Source: an uncultured Christensenellaceae bacterium
Lineage (GTDB): Bacteria; Bacillota; Clostridia; Christensenellales; UBA3700
Assembly (NCBI GenBank): GCA_944381315.1
Contig: CALWKR010000031.1
Coordinates: forward strand, 410-64,409
Direction of reading: 5' to 3'
Length of the DNA stretch: 64,000 nucleotides
Part shown: positions 1,292 through 47,117 of the stretch, one piece after another
How the letters are laid out: the number at the start of each line of letters is the position of its first letter
Position numbering within the stretch: position 1 is the first letter of the stretch
Position numbers and translations under genes: made by a program
The notes under the pieces: generated by a model
The model's database searches: none
What the model was told of the DNA's origin: nothing
The model's input: the letters and a program-made list of their open reading frames with translations, nothing else

Positions 1292-3766
1292 TTAGATAGA
1301 TTTGAGCAACGGCCCCAGCTTGGGGATCGCGCCCGGGATGCCGGCGAGGATGCGGCAGAAGCCCTTGAATGTCGAGCCGTCGTCGTTGAGGATCTCGAGG
1401 AAGCCCTTTGCCATCTTCTCGCTGAACACGCCCATCGACATTGCGATGAAGTTGCGGATCGGGATCTGCAAAGCCATTGCCTTCATCATGTTGGCTTGGC
1501 CGGCGTTCTCGCCCTCGGCAGGCGCTTCGTCGCCGCCCATCATCTTCATTATGAGATTGCACAATCTGCCGCCCCACTTGGTGTGGCGCGCGTCTTCGAG
1601 GCAATTGTAGATGCCGATCGGCTTGGTCGTGTCCATCTCGCGGACGGGAAGCTCGCCGTAGAGCGCGCTCCACTCGTCATCAGAGACGCCCTGCACCGCC
1701 GCCTTGTAATAGGACGGCGCGCTCGCGCGGTAGTCGCGGATGGGCGCGTTGCACTTGCTGTCAACGGTGAGCTTGGCGCTGAGCTTGATGTCGCGCGACG
1801 ACGCTCCGACGAGTATGTCGAACTCGCCGCTCTCCACTTGCCAATCGCCGAGGTCGACGTTGTAGAACGCGAACGCGCGCTTGCCGAGCTCTATCTCGAC
1901 GCGCTTGCTCTCGCCTGCTTTGAGGAACACTTTGGCGAAGCCTTTGAGCTCCTTCTCGGGGCGGAATATCGTGGACTCGACGTCCTTGACATAGACTTGG
2001 GCGACTTCGGCCCCGTCGCGGTCGCCGACATTGGTGACGGTGAACGAAACGGTGACTTTGCCGTCGTCGTCGATCTTGGACGCGGACAGCGCGATGTCGG
2101 AATAGGCGAACGACGTGTAGGAAAGTCCGTAACCGAACGGGAATGCGACTGCCTTGCCTGCGGTGTCGTAATAGCGATAGCCTATGTAGACGCTCTCCTT
2201 GTGCTCGGACGCGACGCGCTGAGGATAGTTGCCCCAAGTCGGATTGTCCTCGACGGAGAACGGCCATGTCTCGGCGGTCTTGCCGCTCGGGTTGACTTCG
2301 CCGGCGATGAGCCTTGCGACTGCGGAGCCGCCTGCCTCGCCGCCGAGCAGCGAGTTGAGAACGCCCTTGACTTTGGGCAGCCAAGGCAACGCGATCACGG
2401 AGCCGCCTGCAAGCACCACGACGGTGTTGGGATTGGCGGCGGCGACTGCCTCTATCAATGCGTTGTGGCAGCCGGGCATGTCGATCGACGTGCGGTCATA
2501 GCCCTCCGCCTCGAATTCTTCGGTCAAGCCTGCGAATACGATCGCGACGTCGGCCGCCTTTGCCTTGGCGACGGCGTCCGCGACGAGCGCGTCATCGACT
2601 TTGTCGACGCCCTTGACGTAGCCCTGCGCGTACTCTGCCTTGTAGCCGAGCGCGGTGAGCGCGTCCCATGCGTTGTCGAGCTTGATCGCGTTGATGATGC
2701 TGGATCCTGCGCCTTGATAGCGCGGCTCCTTTGCCATCTGTCCGATCACGGCGATCGTCTTGTCCTTGGCGATCGGGAGGATGCGATCCTCGTTCTTCAT
2801 CAACACCATGGAGTTTTCCGCCGCCTCGCGCGCAACGACGTGATTGCGGTCATAGTCGCATTCATCCTTTGCCGTTTCGAGCGTATGCTTGGCTTTGAGC
2901 ACAAGATCGACTATCCTGTCGACGACTGCGTCGAGCTCCTCTTGTTTGAGCGAACCGTCCTCGATCGCCTTCTTGATCTTGGGCTGATTGTACTTGCCGG
3001 AAGACGGCATTTCGAGATCTGTGCCGGCTTTGATGCCGAGCGGTCTGTCCACGCTCGCGCCCCAATCGGTCACGACGAGGCCCTTGAAGCCCCATTCGTC
3101 GCGGAGCACCTGCTTTTGGAGCCACATGTTTTGCGAACAATATTCGCCGTTGAGGCGGTTGTACGCATTCATGATCGTCCACGGCTGAGCCTCCTTGACG
3201 GCGATCTCGTATTGGGTGAGATAGATCTCGCGCAGCGCGCGCTCGTCCACGCACTCGTTGACGAGCATGCGGAACGCCTCTTGCGAGTTGACCGCAAAGT
3301 GCTTGAGCGACGTGCCTATCCCCTTGGACTGAACGCCGTTGATGAATGCGGCGGCGCACTTGCCGGCAAGATAGGGGTCCTCGGAATAGTACTCAAAATT
3401 GCGTCCGCAAAGCGGCGAACGCTTGATGTTGGCGCCGGGGCCGAGCAGCACGGAGACCTTCTCGCGTATGCACTCGTCCGCTATCGCCGCGCCCATCTTG
3501 TAGGCGACGTCGGGATCCCACGAACAAGCCACAGTCGCGGCAGGCGGCATGCACGTCGCGGGGACGGAGTTGCCGAGAGGGGCGCCGCCCTTCTTCTTTT
3601 TGTCTTTTTTGTCGTTCTTCTTGCGCAGACCGTGCGGCCCGTCGGTGACCATGATGGACGGCAACCCGTATTGGGGGAACGCCTTGGTCGTCCAATAGTC
3701 CTTGCCGCAGACGATGTCTGCCTTTTCGTCGAGAGTCATCTTCCCGACAATTTCCGGATGCTTCAT
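1292..3766 (-). CDS. Glycoside hydrolase family 3 beta-glucosidase
   Basis: 824-aa ORF with an SD (GGGAGAAG) before the ATG. GH3 N-terminal domain with nucleophile context GLVVTDWGA. GH3 C-terminal and Fn3-like domains by length and sequence character. No signal peptide. Confidence 0.9.
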   Translation of the reverse strand: MKHPEIVGKMTLDEKADIVCGKDYWTTKAFPQYGLPSIMVTDGPHGLRKKNDKKDKKKKGGAPLGNSVPATCMPPAATVACSWDPDVAYKMGAAIADECIREKVSVLLGPGANIKRSPLCGRNFEYYSEDPYLAGKCAAAFINGVQSKGIGTSLKHFAVNSQEAFRMLVNECVDERALREIYLTQYEIAVKEAQPWTIMNAYNRLNGEYCSQNMWLQKQVLRDEWGFKGLVVTDWGASVDRPLGIKAGTDLEMPSSGKYNQPKIKKAIEDGSLKQEELDAVVDRIVDLVLKAKHTLETAKDECDYDRNHVVAREAAENSMVLMKNEDRILPIAKDKTIAVIGQMAKEPRYQGAGSSIINAIKLDNAWDALTALGYKAEYAQGYVKGVDKVDDALVADAVAKAKAADVAIVFAGLTEEFEAEGYDRTSIDMPGCHNALIEAVAAANPNTVVVLAGGSVIALPWLPKVKGVLNSLLGGEAGGSAVARLIAGEVNPSGKTAETWPFSVEDNPTWGNYPQRVASEHKESVYIGYRYYDTAGKAVAFPFGYGLSYTSFAYSDIALSASKIDDDGKVTVSFTVTNVGDRDGAEVAQVYVKDVESTIFRPEKELKGFAKVFLKAGESKRVEIELGKRAFAFYNVDLGDWQVESGEFDILVGASSRDIKLSAKLTVDSKCNAPIRDYRASAPSYYKAAVQGVSDDEWSALYGELPVREMDTTKPIGIYNCLEDARHTKWGGRLCNLIMKMMGGDEAPAEGENAGQANMMKAMALQIPIRNFIAMSMGVFSEKMAKGFLEILNDDGSTFKGFCRILAGIPGAIPKLGPLLKSI

Positions 3767-3811
3767 TTTCTTCTCCCTTACCCCTTCGGGGTCTTGATTA
3801 GGCTATAATAC

Positions 3812-3841
3812 ATTATAGCACAGGCGCGCACATATTGTCCA
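3812..3841 (-). promoter_or_regulatory. Sigma-A-type promoter for the GH3 gene (TGGACA-18-TGcTATAAT)
   Basis: Minus strand reads TGGACA (3836-3841), an 18-nt spacer, and an extended -10 TGCTATAAT (3812-3820), about 45 nt upstream of the ATG. Confidence 0.55.
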
Positions 3842-3873
3842 TAAAATGAATACACTCCGAGCCGCGTCTTTAC

Positions 3874-4914
3874 TCATTTTTGCAAGGTGCGCTTTTTGCG
3901 CCTCAAAACGACGATCAGCGTTGCGATCGCGCATATCACGGCGGCAACCGCTATCGCTCCGCATACCGCCGCCGCGGTGTAGGCGCCCTTTTTGTCGTCA
4001 AAATCTTGAACAGAATTGACATATGGCGCGAAGTCGTCGCAGGCAAAGACTTTTACGTCTTTGATCACAAAGTCGTTGGCGCCGTCGTCGGCGTTCTCGA
4101 ATGCGCCGATCTTCTGGCCGTAGGGGCCGTAGACTGCGTATTCGGGATCGCGTATCTCCACCGTCAGGCGCAAGAACTCGGGCACCGTCGACACGCCGCG
4201 ATAGTCGGTGCGCCAAGTCTCTTCGCCGTCGACGTAGAAGATGTAAGCGTCGGGCGTCCAAAGCACCGCATAGGTGTGAAAGCGCCCGTCATAGAGATCT
4301 TTGCCCGTGTCGGCGACGTGGTCGCCGTAGCTGTACCAAGGCGCGCTGTATGCGTCGACGTGGATCGCGCTGCCCGTCTTGGTCGGATCGGACAAGAAGC
4401 TGGACTCGTAGACGTCGATCTCGGCGCCGTCCTTGCCGCCGTTGCCGATGTTGCCGACATTGTTGCTCTGCAACCAAAACGCGGACCACATGCCCGTGCC
4501 GAGAGGTACCTTGACCGTCGCTTCAAAGTAGCCGTATGCCTGCTCGAACAAGACCTCGTCGCCGTCGCGAGTCTCTATCCCCGACGTGAACACGCCGCTT
4601 TGGGGACAGATGCCTGCCGAACACTTGTGATCGTCCTCGCGGACGGACTTGACGATCAAGCCCTCGTCACCGAATTCGATCATGTCCGCGCACCAATATT
4701 CGTACTTGCGCAGTCCGTGCGGAGACGGAGCCCATACGGTGCCGTCAAGGCTGTCCAATGCAGTGAAGTCGGTGTGGAGAGTGAGACGCCAAGAATCGGG
4801 ATCCGTGTACGGGGTGCCGTCATAGACGTCCGATAAGTCTGAACAGGCGCAAAGCCCGAGCGCGACAGTCGCGATGAGCGCGACTGCCGTGATGATGAAG
4901 AATGTCTTTTTCAT
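3874..4914 (-). CDS. Glycoside hydrolase family 16 (laminarinase/beta-glucanase-like), membrane or lipid anchored
   Basis: 346 aa. Lipobox LGLCAC at the N-terminus. GH16 catalytic motif EIDVYE. C-terminal hydrophobic helix followed by RRKKR. Confidence 0.8.
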   Translation of the reverse strand: MKKTFFIITAVALIATVALGLCACSDLSDVYDGTPYTDPDSWRLTLHTDFTALDSLDGTVWAPSPHGLRKYEYWCADMIEFGDEGLIVKSVREDDHKCSAGICPQSGVFTSGIETRDGDEVLFEQAYGYFEATVKVPLGTGMWSAFWLQSNNVGNIGNGGKDGAEIDVYESSFLSDPTKTGSAIHVDAYSAPWYSYGDHVADTGKDLYDGRFHTYAVLWTPDAYIFYVDGEETWRTDYRGVSTVPEFLRLTVEIRDPEYAVYGPYGQKIGAFENADDGANDFVIKDVKVFACDDFAPYVNSVQDFDDKKGAYTAAAVCGAIAVAAVICAIATLIVVLRRKKRTLQK

Positions 4915-12258: not shown

Positions 12259-12603
12259 CACCGCCATTGCGGGAAGGGAGTGAGCAGAAAAAATTCCGAC
12301 AGCATTTTGCTGTCGGAAGCTTTCTGTGCACAGCAGTTTTGAGCTGCGTATTTTGCATGTTTCGCTATTCTTTTCCACTCCGTGGAGAGTGGTGCAGATT
12401 TGCGCCGTACAAAAGCGAGGACGCGGCCAAACGTATATGAAATACGTGACCGCATCTAAGACTTGCAGTAAGGCGCAAAGATGCGCCGCTATACGCGGCG
12501 TGGCGAAGGTCAATACCCGTAGAAGGTCTTAGCGAGGGGCAAGACGAAGTATTCGCGCAAAAGCCGCGCTCAAAACCTCACTCCCTCCCCGTCAATGGCG
12601 GTG
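12259..12603. repeat. Inverted-repeat-bounded ~345-bp element, copy 1 (MITE-like or structured RNA)
   Basis: Left arm CACCGCCATTGCGGGAAGGGAGTGAG (12259-12284) is complementary to right arm 12577-12603. The core of ~250 bp is about 95 percent identical to 17384-17636. Confidence 0.8.
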
Positions 12604-15359: not shown

Positions 15360-15402
15360 CGCGCTCGCCGTGATGTGCGCGCATGCCCGCATTAAAAAAT
15401 TG

Positions 15403-15432
15403 TTGACATATGCGCGCGCGATACCTTATACT
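15403..15432 (+). promoter_or_regulatory. Sigma-A-type promoter for the oadB-like operon (TTGACA-18-TATACT)
   Basis: TTGACA (15403-15408) and TATACT (15427-15432). Confidence 0.65.
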
Positions 15433-15454
15433 AAATGCGTACACGATGTGTGCC

Positions 15455-15571
15455 TCCTGCGGGGAGTAGTCGGCGCCTCGGGCGCAATTAGCCGTTAGCA
15501 CGAAAGGTCAGCCTTTCCGGTTTAATTTGAAATGACGAGACCGCGGATCGGTCCCCCGGTCCTCGGTCTCA
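15455..15571 (+). promoter_or_regulatory. Candidate yybP-ykoY (Mn2+) riboswitch with alternative hairpin
   Basis: GGGGAGTAG (15461-15469) sits next to a closing helix CTGCGG (15457-15462) / CCGCGG (15541-15546) that is entered from GACGAGA (15534-15540). Internal hairpins lie at 15473-15485 and 15502-15517. A competing stem GAGACCG (15537-15543) / CGGTCTC (15564-15570) is possible. The call rests on my recollection of the RF00080 consensus. Confidence 0.5.
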
Positions 15572-15591
15572 ATAATTGAAGAGGAGTATAT

Positions 15592-16710
15592 ATGGATTTC
15601 TTGATCGAAAGCATCAGCAATGTCTCGTGGCAGAACGTCGTCATGTGGGCTGTCGGCGCATTGCTGATTTTCCTTGCCATCAAGTTTGACATGGAGCCTA
15701 CGCTGCTGCTGCCCATGGGCTTCGGCGCGATCCTTGTCAACATACCGCTTTCCAACGTCGTCACTTCCGAAGAAGGCGCCGGCATCATCGACTGGCTGTT
15801 CGACATCGGCATCGGCGCGTCCGAAGCAATGCCCATCTTGCTGTTCATCGGCATAGGCGCAATGATAGACTTCGGGCCATTGCTATCCAATCCAAAGCTG
15901 TTTTTGCTGGGCGGCGCGGCGCAATTCGGCATCTTCTTGACGCTGCTGCTCGCGACGCTGTTCGGATTCGATCTCATCGACGCGGCGTCCATTGCGATCA
16001 TCGGCGCAGCCGACGGTCCGACCGCGATCGTCGTCGCTCAGGCGCTGGGCAGCAAATATCTGGGCGCAATCACGATCGTCGCATATTCGTATATGGCGCT
16101 CGTCCCGATCATTCAGCCTGCCGTCGTCAAGCTGATGACCACCAAGAAAGAACGCCTCATCCGTATGGACTACACTCCTACGCAGGTGTCGCGCACGACC
16201 AAGATCCTCTTCCCGATCGTCGTCACGCTGGTCGCCGGTCTGATCGCTCCCAAGTCGCTCGCGCTTGTCGGATTCTTGATGTTCGGCAACTTGCTGCGTG
16301 AGTGCGGCGTGCTCAGGCTGCTGTCCGAAACGGCGCAAAACGTCCTCGCCAACCTCATCACTCTGCTGCTCGGCATCACGATCGCTTCGCAGATGAGAGG
16401 CGAAGCGTTCCTTACCGTAGAGACCCTGCTCATCTTGGCTCTCGGCTTGCTCGCGTTCATCTTCGACACCGCCGCAGGCGTCGGCTTCGCCAAGGTGATG
16501 AACCTCTTCTCCAAAAAGAAGATCAACCCGATGATCGGCGCGGCAGGTATCTCCGCCTTCCCGATGTCGGCAAGAGTCATCCAAAAAATGGGACTCAAAG
16601 AGGATCCTTCCAACCACTTGCTGATGCACGCGATCGGCGCTAATGTATCCGGTCAGATCGCTTCGGCGATCGTAGGCGGACTGATCATCAGTCTCGTCAT
16701 GTCCGTCTGA
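15592..16710 (+). CDS. Sodium ion-translocating decarboxylase beta subunit family protein (OadB/GcdB/MmdB-like)
   Basis: 372 aa, collinear with OadB-family blocks: EPTLLLPMGFG, IGAMIDFGPLLSNPK, IIGAADGPTAI, AYSYMALVPIIQP, KKINPMIGAAGISAFPMSARV, LLMHAIGANVSG. Confidence 0.9.
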   Translation: MDFLIESISNVSWQNVVMWAVGALLIFLAIKFDMEPTLLLPMGFGAILVNIPLSNVVTSEEGAGIIDWLFDIGIGASEAMPILLFIGIGAMIDFGPLLSNPKLFLLGGAAQFGIFLTLLLATLFGFDLIDAASIAIIGAADGPTAIVVAQALGSKYLGAITIVAYSYMALVPIIQPAVVKLMTTKKERLIRMDYTPTQVSRTTKILFPIVVTLVAGLIAPKSLALVGFLMFGNLLRECGVLRLLSETAQNVLANLITLLLGITIASQMRGEAFLTVETLLILALGLLAFIFDTAAGVGFAKVMNLFSKKKINPMIGAAGISAFPMSARVIQKMGLKEDPSNHLLMHAIGANVSGQIASAIVGGLIISLVMSV

Positions 16711-16721
16711 GGAGGTGTAGT

Positions 16722-17102
16722 ATGAAATCAGCTGTTTTGAAAAAATTGTGCGTCGGCACCCTGCTGTGCCTGATCGTGTTGCTGACAATGTTCGCTTGGA
16801 CAACGGTCTGCGTTGCGGAAGAAGCTCCGACAGAAGACGGCTCCGCCGCGACCGACCAAACCACCCCCTCGGATGAACCCGCCGACGAAGGCCTCGGCTT
16901 GCACTTCGACAAAGACAATGTCATCGCCTCCCTCAATATCATGTGGAAAGGCGTGCTCGCTATCTTCATCACGATCGCGATCATCATCGTCGTCTCTGTC
17001 GTCATGAACAAGGCGTGCAACGCCGCATCCGAATCTATCAAAAAGCGTCAAAAGAAGATAGAGGACGATCTGAGGAACAACAATACGGACGGTCAGTCCT
17101 GA
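16722..17102 (+). CDS. Small membrane protein, possibly OadG-like
   Basis: 126 aa. Signal/TM segment, an acidic Thr/Pro/Asp/Glu linker, then one TM (GVLAIFITIAIIIVVSVVMNKA) that resembles OadG-family helices. Starts 12 nt after oadB. Confidence 0.5.
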   Translation: MKSAVLKKLCVGTLLCLIVLLTMFAWTTVCVAEEAPTEDGSAATDQTTPSDEPADEGLGLHFDKDNVIASLNIMWKGVLAIFITIAIIIVVSVVMNKACNAASESIKKRQKKIEDDLRNNNTDGQS

Positions 17103-17136
17103 CGACTGCCGCAATTGCGGCGAGAAGACAAACAAT

Positions 17137-17167
17137 TTCCGACAGCGTCTTGCTGTCGGAATTTTTA
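17137..17167 (+). terminator. Rho-independent terminator after the oadB-like operon
   Basis: Stem TTCCGACAGC / GCTGTCGGAA, loop GTCTT, then T5. The same hairpin recurs at 12294, 17264 and 17392. Confidence 0.7.
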
Positions 17168-17391
17168 TGTGCAAAGCAGTTTTGAATCGATTTATAAATT
17201 GCATTAGACGGAGCAATGCTCACACTCTGCACCGCCATTGCGGGGAGGGAGTGAGCATAAAAATTCCGACGGCGTTTTGCTGTCGGAAGCTTTCTGTGCA
17301 AAGCAGTTTTGAATTGGTTAACTAATTTGCATTAGACGGAGCAATGCTCACACTCTGCACCGCCATTGCGGCGAGAGGGCAAGCAGAAAAA
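17137..17391. repeat. Two tandem 127-bp units
   Basis: Units start at 17137 and 17264, and a third starts at 17392 and continues into element copy 2. Each unit carries the TTCCGAC...GTCGGAA hairpin, GCATTAGACGGAGCAATGCTCACACTCTG, and a CACCGCCATTGCGG arm. Confidence 0.85.
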
Positions 17392-17701
17392 TTCCGACAG
17401 CTTTTTGCTGCCGGAAGCTTTCTGTGCAAAGCAGTTTTGAGCTGCGTATTTTGCATGTTTCGCTAGTCTTTACCACGCCGCGGAGAGTGGTGCAGATTTG
17501 CGCCGTACAAAAGCGAGGACGCGGCCAAGCGTATATGAAATACGTGACCGCGTCTAAGACTTGCAGTAAGGCGCTAAGATGCGCCGCTATACGCGGCGTG
17601 GCGAAGGTCAATACCCGTAGAAGGTCTTAGCGAGAGGTGCGACACAGTGTGAGGGCGAAAGACATAGCCAAAACCTTGCCCTCTCCCCGTCAATGGCGGT
17701 G
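17358..17701. repeat. Inverted-repeat-bounded ~345-bp element, copy 2
   Basis: Left arm CACCGCCATTGCGGCGAGAGGGCAAG (17358-17383) is complementary to right arm 17675-17701. The core matches copy 1. Confidence 0.8.
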
Positions 17702-44592: not shown

Positions 44593-46047
44593 TCATTCCT
44601 CCACAACATTGAGCTTCTCGATGTACGGATCTTCGGGGCCCGTCATCTGGCAGCCCTTCTCTTTGGCATAGGCGATATAATCGAGGATGCGACGCGTGAT
44701 GCGCTCGCCGGGCGCGAGAATGGGGATGCCGGGAGGATAGCACATCACGAATTCGCTGCATATCCTGCCCTCTGTCTTTTGGATAGGGAGCATCTCCTCT
44801 TTGTCGGCATAGAACGCGTCCTGAGGGCTCATCGCGACGATGGGCTCGATGTATTCATACTTCATCAATCCCGCCTTGGACTTCTTGTAGAGGCGGCGTA
44901 TCTCGGCGAGCGCGCTGACGAGCCTCTCGATGTCGCGTTCGCGATCGCCGATGGAGAGATAGGCGAGGATGTTGCCGAGATCGCCGAATTCTATCTGAAT
45001 GTCGTACTCGTCGCGCAGCAAGTCATAGACTTCGATGCCGGCAAGACCTATGTCGAGAGTGTTGACGGACAGCTTGGTCTCGTCAAAGTCGAACACGCTG
45101 TCGCCGTTGATCAGCTCTTTGCCAAAAGCGTAGTAGTCGCCGATGTCGTTGATCTCGTCTCTCGCATAGCGCGCCATCCTCACGACTTCGCCGAAAGCCG
45201 CTTCGCCGCGAAGGGCGAGATTGCGGCGCGAGATGTCGAGGCTGGACAGCAGCAGATAGGACGCGCTGGTCGTCTGCGTGAGGTTGATGACTTGGCGCAC
45301 ATAGCCGTCCTGCATGGACGGACCTGTGAGCAACAGCGAACTCTGCGTCAGCGATCCGCCCGACTTGTGCATGGAGACCGCCGCCATATCCGCGCCTGCC
45401 GCCATTGCCGAGACGGGCATGTCCTTGCCGAAATAAAAATGCGTGCCGTGCGCCTCATCGACGATGCAAAGCATCCCGGCGGCGTGCGCAAGTGACACGA
45501 TCGTGCGAAGATCGCTGCATATGCCGTAATATGTAGGATTGTTGACGAGAACAGCCTTGGCGTCGGGGTGCTCGGCGATCGCCTTGCGCACCGCCGCCAC
45601 GCTCATGCCGAGCGAAATGCCGAGTCTGTCGTCCGTCTCGGGATCGACATAGACGGGAACGGCGCCGTTGAGGACCATGGCGGTCATGACGCTGCGATGC
45701 ACGTTGCGAGGCAAGATGATCTTTTCTCCGCGCTTGGTGACGGTCAAGATCATCGTCTGTACCGCCGACGTCGTGCCGCCCACCATCAAGAACGCGCCGT
45801 GCGAGCCGAACGCCTCGGCGGCGAGCAGCTCCGCGTCGCGGATCACCGATACGGGATGGCACAAGTTGTCGAGGCACTTCATCGAATTGACGTCGAGGCT
45901 GACGCACTTCTGTCCGAGCAGCTCTGTCAATTCGGGATTGCCTCTGCCGCGCTTGTGCCCCGGCACGTCGAACGGCACGAGCCTCATGCTCTTCATCTCT
46001 TGCAGCGCCTCATAGATGGGCGCGCTCGTCTGAGACAGCTTCTTCAT
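44593..46047 (-). CDS. speA: Orn/Lys/Arg decarboxylase family enzyme (Firmicute-type arginine decarboxylase)
   Basis: 484 aa. PLP-lysine context [15 protein letters not shown] overlap with the speD stop. Confidence 0.85.
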
Positions 46048-46814: not shown

Positions 46815-47117
46815 ATTCGTCTCCGAGAAAAAGGGCGATATGCTGTCTGCATATCGCCCGTAAAACAATCTCGTTATCCGACACGGATACCTCACAGAGT
46901 CTATATAGCAAATACACTTTTACTACTCTTATTGATTGTTTTACAAGCGGTCGTGCTCTCGCACCGGTTATTAAGTAACCAACTCATAAGATCGAGCGAA
47001 CTCGATCACAATAAGGCAACTTGCGTTGCGTTCGGCAGTGGACCCGGCTGTCCGTATGGCCTTACCCCTTTCGGGAGGTCCGAATATTTGCATGGATACT
47101 CTGATGATATCGCATGT
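46815..47117 (-). promoter_or_regulatory. ~300-nt structured 5' leader of the polyamine operon (unclassified cis-regulatory RNA candidate)
   Basis: Lies between promoter 47124-47152 and the ATG at 46814. Contains several tetraloop-capped hairpins (46953-46965 GAGA, 46990-47007 UUCG, 47016-47029 GCAA, 47065-47078 GAAA) and ends in an intrinsic terminator. Confidence 0.6.
46826..46859 (-). terminator. Intrinsic terminator (attenuator) inside the speD leader
   Basis: Minus strand reads GGGCGATATGC-AGACA-GCATATCGCCC followed by TTTTT. The T-run ends 12 nt before the speD ATG. Confidence 0.75.

Follow-up and report, generated by a model that had tools for sequence, protein, structure and literature searches.

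A probable Mn2+-type riboswitch of the three-way-junction form ahead of a Na+-pump beta-gamma module in an uncultured Christensenellaceae bacterium

We analysed a stretch of 64,000 nucleotides from an uncultured Christensenellaceae bacterium (assembly GCA_944381315.1, contig CALWKR010000031.1, positions 410 to 64,409, forward strand), referred to here as the window. In this window, a structured leader precedes a gene for an OadB-type decarboxylase beta subunit (oadB). The leader is probably a genuine yybP-ykoY riboswitch, of the class that responds to Mn2+, in the three-way-junction form, and probably controls a two-gene membrane module of a Na+-translocating decarboxylase. The leader has the structure of this class and belongs to the family by its architecture. 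By analogy, the ligand would be Mn2+ and possibly Ca2+. An initial annotation of the same DNA had proposed a yybP-ykoY-type riboswitch ahead of an OadB-family gene. This proposal was borne out by the architecture, by the loop sequences and by a covariance model (CM) that linked the leader to the aptamers of exporter genes.

The aptamer structure was derived by hand from an alignment (A1) of the 26 oadB leaders that align cleanly, and consisted of five helices (Table 1). On this alignment, 94.7% of the cells were paired, compared with 80.5% after shuffling and 31-41% when the register was slid. Compensatory changes were found in 20 of the 30 pairs, and none of 500 shuffles reached any of the observed measures. 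This covariation meant that the helices proposed in the initial annotation were conserved upstream of orthologues. The closing helix and two small hairpins (P2 and P3.2) had been recognised correctly there, and P3.1 and P1.2 had been missed. The structure was also examined in another set, of 84 model-aligned aptamers (67 distinct), which came almost entirely from the metagenome scan described below. In this set, 93.2% of the cells were paired and 25 of the 30 pairs were compensatory, in an alignment that leans towards the structure because it was fitted to the model. Folding of the aptamer alone with RNAfold gave the same structure at -30.2 kcal/mol, except that P3.2 gained one pair and the bulge of P3.1 was shifted.

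The invariant blocks of the 26 leaders were GGGAGUAG, the A and C of L3, GGUU.AAU, the AA of UNAAA and C.AGAC. GGGAGUAG was unchanged in 26/26 leaders. AGAC was invariant and was preceded by G, A or C, and the two central adenines of the UNAAA linker were invariant as well.

Table 1. Coordinates of the features in the window, in order of position (MFE, minimum free energy)
Feature	Position	Strand	Evidence
Sigma-70-type promoter, TTGACA-18-TATACT	15403..15432 (TTGACA 15403-15408; TATACT 15427-15432)	+	11/12 consensus positions
Riboswitch aptamer, three-way-junction yybP-ykoY type	15457..15546	+	alignment, pair counts, MFE fold, CM R1 86.3 bits
P1.1 (closing helix), CTGCGG/CCGCGG	15457-15462 / 15541-15546	+	
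GGGGAGTAG	15461-15469	+	
L1 5' side, GGAGUA	15463-15468	+	
P1.2, 4 bp	15469-15472 / 15533-15536	+	
P2	15473-15485	+	
P3.1, 9 bp	15486-15494 / 15518-15527	+	
L3, UUAGCAC, 7-nt asymmetric loop with invariant A at 15497	15495-15501	+	
P3.2	15502-15517	+	
J3/1 linker, UGAAA	15528-15532	+	
GACGAGA, leading into the 3' strand of P1.1	15534-15540	+	
L1 3' side, GAGA (GAGACC at 15537-15542)	15537-15540	+	
Competitor (terminator-like) hairpin, 14 bp, -26.2 kcal/mol	15537..15570	+	folding
Core of the competing stem, GAGACCG/CGGTCTC	15537-15543 / 15564-15570	+	
Shine-Dalgarno GAGGAG, 5 nt ahead of the ATG at 15592	15581..15586	+	sequence
oadB/gcdB/mmdB-type Na+-translocating decarboxylase beta subunit, 372 aa	15592..16710	+	Pfam OAD_beta E = 5.8e-150
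OadG-like gamma subunit, 126 aa	16722..17102	+	OAD_gamma best Pfam match, helix LNIMWKGVLAIF
Intrinsic terminator closing the two-gene operon, 11-bp stem then TTTTTATG	17137..17161	+	hairpin and sequence

The loops of the aptamer were compared with those of known family members. L1 carried GGGGAGUA on its 5' strand, abutting the 5' strand of P1.1, and NAGA on its 3' strand. The metal pocket of the S. pneumoniae mgtA aptamer is built from L1 and L3; on the 3' strand of L1, a variable base precedes an invariant AGA, a C-A of L3 that is equivalent to C40-A41 of L. lactis provides metal ligands, and an invariant UNAAA replaces P4 (PMC6649816). A41 is the invariant adenine that confers Mn2+ selectivity (PMC11672702). 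In the window, UGAAA stands in the place of P4, which fits the UNAAA of the three-way-junction subtype. L3 of the oadB leaders contains an invariant A (A15497 in the window) with an invariant C two positions on, and the equivalence of this A to A41 is an alignment by position.

The closest known systems were S. pneumoniae mgtA (PMC6649816) and SSRC10, a transcript of S. pyogenes that immediately precedes a 'putative calcium transporter' (PMC3675131). They have in common with the window leader a three-way junction with UNAAA for P4, an L1 composed of a 5' strand GGGAGUAG and a 3' strand NAGA, a 7-nt L3 of the YYAAYAC pattern, and a terminator (in the window, a terminator-like hairpin) that overlaps the 3' strand of P1.1. 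The consensus of the Rfam family of SSRC10 (RF02617) contains GGGAGUAG, UGAAA, GAGACC and a terminator, and SSRC10 presumably corresponds to the Mn2+ riboswitch of S. pneumoniae mgtA. However, the cargo of mgtA is a PII-type Mn2+/Ca2+ ATPase, whereas the leader here precedes a decarboxylase beta-gamma module. The window has UUAGCAC as its L3 and the relatives have CUAACAC, compared with UCAAUAC in S. pneumoniae mgtA. In addition, P3.1 is nearly fixed in sequence in the oadB leaders (AAUUAAAUCG/CGGUUUAAUU), and the window copy has no U-tract. The L. lactis yoaB and E. coli mntP riboswitches, which have a four-way junction and belong to RF00080, resemble the window leader in the layout of L1 and L3, in an invariant L3 adenine and, as predicted for the window, in the use of P1.1 as the switching helix and in the ON logic. 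They differ from it in that the window leader has no P4, no RF00080 match and a different cargo.

We also considered the Na+-I riboswitch (DUF1646 motif), an ion-sensing ON switch that sometimes controls genes of the Na+-pumping oxaloacetate decarboxylase and precedes pycB in Acetivibrio cellulolyticus (PMC9337991). This candidate was rejected because there was no Rfam match, either in the leader at E <= 10 or at gathering score in 33 orthologous loci, and because the fold is different. The Na+-I fold consists of two hairpins and is unrelated. There, Na+ controls a Na+ pump, whereas the ion and the pump would not correspond here.

The distribution of the leader was examined in two ways. A protein scan with OadB, using one genome per species, gave 80 orthologous loci with 68-94% identity, and the closest of them were from Christensenellales, including Candidatus Ornithoclostridium. 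Of these 80 loci, 28 had the leader pattern GGAGTAG...RAGAC ahead of oadB, which together with the window makes 29/81 genome loci. In the second approach, metagenome contigs were searched with a pattern derived from the oadB leaders, and 80 loci were returned. The gene downstream was an intact oadB in 37/80 and a P-type ATPase gene in 12/80. It was an MntP gene in 11/80 and a gene of the Na_Ca_ex family in 6/80. Only the first ~20-30 oadB codons were left after a deletion in 7/80, and the contig was too short to tell in the remaining 7/80. The pairing of riboswitch and oadB was thus found in 44/80 metagenome loci, seven of them deletion remnants.

A covariance model (R1) was then built from oadB leaders only. 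R1 gave 86.3 bits for the window aptamer and 45-88 bits for the aptamers that precede the MntP (11), P-type ATPase (12) and Na_Ca_ex (6) genes. It gave 51.7 bits in L016, where riboswitch, P-type ATPase, mntP, oadB and oadG lie in this order on one strand. The match of R1 to the E. coli mntP riboswitch was weak (17.1 bits). Since the aptamer subtype precedes MntP, ATPase and Na_Ca_ex genes, its cargo comprises classical Mn2+/Ca2+ exporters in addition to oadB. In addition, the oadB-oadG pair adjoins Mn-type exporter genes (mntP and/or P-type ATPase) in L016, L026 and L073.

Several of these loci had features of their own. In the seven deletion remnants (metagenome contigs L126, L130, L136, L142, L152, L153 and L155), the riboswitch, the terminator, the Shine-Dalgarno sequence and the first ~20-30 oadB codons were kept, and the remainder of oadB had been deleted together with the gamma gene, with two different junctions. 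The two junctions indicated that the oadB-gamma module was lost repeatedly in one lineage. In L016, an intact riboswitch was located at 249-341, upstream of the ATPase-mntP genes. Between mntP and oadB of the same locus (3820-3990), there was a promoter-like site with a leader (GGUAGUAG ... GAUUUAAUUUUUAACGACAAGGC) that looks like a decayed riboswitch copy and was not detected by R1. In L026, a riboswitch was looked for ahead of mntP and oadB, and promoters only were found. In L020, ~320 nt of extra non-coding sequence (3656-3976) separated the intact riboswitch and terminator from oadB. This spacer was missing from the closely related aptamers of the seven deletion-remnant contigs.

The region between the aptamer and oadB was analysed as the expression platform. 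The 5' arm of the competitor hairpin includes the 3' strands of L1 and P1.1, and the hairpin therefore excludes the closed aptamer. In the relatives, the equivalent hairpin was followed by a U-run in 26/28 cases, counted by eye because an automated scan for hairpins and U-tracts over-extended the stems. The U-run was missing in the nearest relative, L002. The arrangement in the 26 relatives is that of a standard intrinsic terminator, and therefore the element would be an ON switch that works by antitermination, as other members of the family do. In the MFE fold of the full leader, the Shine-Dalgarno sequence was paired with 15446-15457. Sequestration of the Shine-Dalgarno sequence by CCUCC (15453-15457) was examined and rejected. 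The anti-Shine-Dalgarno sequence was absent in L002, and the pairing was topologically compatible with both states of the aptamer.

The identity of the cargo was examined next. The initial annotation had described the first gene as a full-length OadB/GcdB/MmdB-type subunit, in agreement with the OAD_beta match. The protein aligned with Salmonella OadB (PDB 6IVA) over 309 residues with E = 8e-92. With 372 aa compared with 433 aa in Salmonella, it is a short form, as are GcdB and MmdB. Six residues of K. pneumoniae OadB (D203, Y229, N373, G377, S382 and R389) are reported from mutagenesis to be essential for Na+ binding and carboxybiotin decarboxylation. Their equivalents were conserved in the window protein and did not vary among 81 orthologues. 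In the alignment of these 81 orthologues, no column separated riboswitch-linked from riboswitch-free OadB. The idea that the riboswitch-linked proteins form a diverged, repurposed subgroup was rejected on these grounds, and the repurposed OadB paralogue suggested in the initial annotation gained no support.

A small open reading frame (ORF) followed oadB in 76/81 loci and encoded a conserved L(E/D)IMWKG.LAIF transmembrane helix. The best Pfam match of the 126-aa protein in the window was OAD_gamma (PF04277), with 19.3 bits compared with a cut-off of 27. OAD_gamma was matched at E <= 0.01 by 21 of 30 orthologous small ORFs, with a best value of 9.7e-7, and no other family recurred. A profile of the small ORFs had no significant match among PDB sequences. 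The window protein consists of a signal-peptide-like N-terminus, an acidic low-complexity spacer and the conserved LNIMWKGVLAIF transmembrane helix. The initial annotation had listed it as a membrane protein, and its likeness to OadG had not been recognised. A gained signal-peptide-like N-terminus with an acidic or Thr/Ser/Gly-rich spacer was observed at 16722-16930 of the window and in L002, L003, L005, L007, L012 and L022. In other taxa, the OadG-like protein measured 41-99 aa only.

The beta3-gamma3 complex of Salmonella oxaloacetate decarboxylase (PDB 6IVA/6IWW) resembles the cargo in its key beta residues and in a small, single-helix gamma-like partner encoded directly after beta. It differs in that the gamma protein here is below the Pfam threshold and has a signal-peptide-like N-terminal extension, and in that no alpha subunit or biotin carrier was found nearby by a motif scan. 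The neighbouring genes inspected were unrelated ones with no alpha subunit among them, where no search was aimed at carboxyltransferase domains. The oadB gene, called an orphan in the initial annotation, is not a lone subunit, since an OadG-like gamma follows. To judge from these sequences, the cargo is most likely a genuine Na+-pump beta-gamma module that is encoded apart from its presumed partners.

Based on the above results, the following mechanism is proposed. Transcription would begin at the TTGACA/TATACT promoter, which was identified by its consensus match only, with a start predicted at about 15439. The nascent RNA would fold into P1.1-L1-P1.2, P2 and P3.1-L3-P3.2, as indicated by the covariation. 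At high Mn2+, and possibly also at high Ca2+, the metal would bridge L1 (GGAGUA/GAGA) and L3 (invariant A15497) and lock P1.1. We infer this step because of the homology with the riboswitches of L. lactis, E. coli and S. pneumoniae. The locked P1.1 would sequester GAGACCGCGG, which is otherwise the 5' arm of the hairpin at 15537-15570, and the mutual exclusion of the two can be read from the base pairs. The terminator would then not be formed, and the genes would be ON, as suggested by the U-run of the relatives. The pump might supply the sodium-motive force for Na+-coupled antiporters of divalent cations and thus provide a fail-safe response to an excess of Mn2+ (or Ca2+). This supply is our preferred reason why Mn2+ would induce the pump, and it is the weakest step of the explanation. 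It was favoured because CaCA/Na_Ca_ex exchangers are co-cargo of the same aptamer subtype.

Several observations weighed against a Mn2+ riboswitch controlling a Na+ pump. The cargo at the window locus is OAD_beta and an OadG-like protein and includes no exporter of Mn2+ or other divalent cations, and a Na+-pump subunit is no obvious Mn2+-response gene. A scan for biotinylation motifs was negative both in the 64-kb window and within ~4 kb at the 80 orthologous loci. The hairpin in the window is followed by AAUAAUUG and not by a U-tract, and no conserved sequestration of the Shine-Dalgarno sequence was found as an alternative platform. In the case of L3, most oadB leaders carry a U at the position equivalent to C40 of L. 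lactis, where a minority have C. The L3 consensus of the oadB leaders (N-Y-A-R-C-A-C, with a G-C closing pair) is also unlike that of most exporter-linked relatives with ATPase or MntP cargo (A-C-A-U-M-A-U, with an A-U closing pair). The two types have in common a central A and a CA one position later. Finally, a permissive Rfam scan of 15380-15640 gave no match to RF00080 even at E <= 10. In a scan of 16 orthologous loci, including 14 with the leader, no Rfam family attained its gathering score at the leader, and no riboswitch family was found in the leader at gathering thresholds in the window and 33 orthologous loci.

The behaviour of the Rfam models was examined with known and related aptamers. 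The E. coli K-12 mntP riboswitch (L081, 668-758) was used as a control and scored 44.9 bits with RF00080, for which the cut-off is 45 (Rfam 15). RF00080 was therefore present in the library, and its model is strict. Seven exporter-linked relatives, including L082, L085, L089, L101, L112 and L016, were scanned. RF00080 matched four of the seven with only 18.8-26.3 bits, in ATPase- and CaCA-linked members, and the MntP-linked members L082 and L101 had no RF00080 match at E <= 1. SSRC10 (RF02617) matched four of the seven at 37-44 bits. It was also the sole Rfam match of the window leader, with 21.4 bits and E = 0.05 in the permissive scan. The RF00080 model is thus insensitive to the clostridial three-way-junction subtype, exporter-linked relatives being missed too, and for this reason its miss is not evidence against membership. 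A search with RF00080 had been suggested as a check in the initial annotation. It gave no match, and it fails as a test since the model is insensitive to the subtype. That annotation had named two findings that would together speak against its proposal: the missing RF00080 match was seen, and a lack of helix conservation was not. Because the Rfam Mn2+ model misses this subtype, genome annotations under-count these riboswitches, and this hides the oadB cargo class.

The L3 difference raised the question of ligand specificity. It is possible, and in our judgement unlikely, that the aptamers ahead of oadB keep the yybP-ykoY fold with a changed specificity and sense, in place of Mn2+, an ion that matters to the pump, such as Na+ or Ca2+. 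Such a variant would account for an L3 consensus distinct from that of the ATPase- and MntP-linked relatives, and for RF00080 scores that are weak for exporter-linked relatives (19-26 bits) and absent for the oadB type. Na+-responsive control of oxaloacetate decarboxylase genes exists through the unrelated Na+-I riboswitch (PMC9337991), and the three-way-junction member of S. pneumoniae binds Ca2+ more tightly than Mn2+ (PMC6649816). However, the invariant A equivalent to A41, the whole of L1, NAGA and UNAAA are unchanged in the oadB leaders. The oadB-type L3, YYAAYAC, also repeats the purine/pyrimidine pattern of the S. pneumoniae L3, UCAAUAC, position by position. In addition, the Na_Ca_ex gene of L135 is preceded by an aptamer with the oadB-type L3 CUAACAC, which scored 87.8 bits with R1. 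Because an exchanger gene bears this loop, the L3 flavour seems to track lineage more than cargo. The L3 difference thus seems to follow lineage rather than ligand, which leaves room for a tuned or altered selectivity.

A second alternative, to which we give slightly less credence, concerns the cargo. It holds that the OadB/OadG-like pair works without alpha as an exporter of divalent cations (Mn2+/Ca2+), or as a Na+-coupled exchanger, on the elevator fold of OadB. Every other cargo of the aptamer subtype is a cation exporter, and the pair lies directly beside mntP and/or P-type ATPase genes in the three loci named above. The pair also stands alone with respect to biotin carrier motifs, and many of the gamma proteins have merely 41-50 aa, with no tail able to hold an alpha subunit. 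However, the equivalents of the six K. pneumoniae residues are invariant in all 81 orthologues, and no column distinguishes the riboswitch-linked proteins from the riboswitch-free ones. Moreover, unlinked alpha genes are known in the decarboxylase family, and gcdA of Acidaminococcus fermentans is such a gene. If direct export were true, the pair would found a new Mn2+ exporter family, and a classic subunit of bioenergetics would acquire a new function.

It is very improbable that the element is a protein-bound structured leader or a stand-alone small RNA (sRNA) like SSRC10 instead of a metal-sensing riboswitch. In favour of this reading, the only Rfam match of the leader is to an 'sRNA' family, and the window copy has no U-tract terminator. 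Against it, every copy of the element directly precedes a cation-transport gene in the same orientation, and P1.1 overlaps the stem of the terminator in all cases. In addition, SSRC10 is itself located just ahead of a gene for a cation ATPase and has yybP-ykoY loops and a terminator, which makes it a terminated riboswitch transcript.

The assignment to a Mn2+-type riboswitch that controls a Na+-pump module bears on how such cargo is read. Riboswitch cargo has repeatedly pointed to the functions of unknown transporters, and it linked MntP, TerC and UPF0016 proteins to Mn2+. The Na+-pump beta-gamma module is a frequent target of the Mn2+-type riboswitch in gut Clostridia. The pairing points either to a so far unrecognised link of the sodium cycle with Mn2+/Ca2+ detoxification, with the pump driving Na+-coupled antiporters, or to a new transport role for the OadB fold. 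The initial annotation had regarded the pairing as unreported. We found no description of a yybP-ykoY riboswitch paired with a decarboxylase in the full-text literature searched, which left out the 2015 lists of yybP-ykoY cargo, and the claim of novelty is provisional to that extent. Provisionally, what is new is the frequent oadB cargo class with an L3 flavour of its own, and the riboswitch class and the subtype were known.

The surroundings of the operon were also inspected. The promoter, helices, hairpins, competing stem, ORFs and flanking genes of the initial annotation were all located where it had placed them. Promoter-like sites occurred at a mean of 1.0 per shuffle in the shuffled 2-kb region. 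The neighbours of the two-gene unit encode LuxS and a class I/II aminotransferase. A 300-nt direct repeat (12289-12588 and 17387-17686, 90% identical) brackets the recD2-like/luxS/oadB/oadG block. Beside it, at 17129-17455, there are three tandem units of ~128 nt, each with a hairpin TTCCGACAGC...GCTGTCGGAA, and one of these units doubles as the operon terminator. The scan of the window with Rfam at gathering thresholds gave no match to the direct repeat or the tandem units. Elsewhere in the window, a full-length match to RF02440 (SpF59 sRNA / ldcC RNA motif) was found on the minus strand at 47032-47081, with 66.3 bits and E = 1e-09, ahead of an ORF of 484 aa (44593-46047) that is also on the minus strand.

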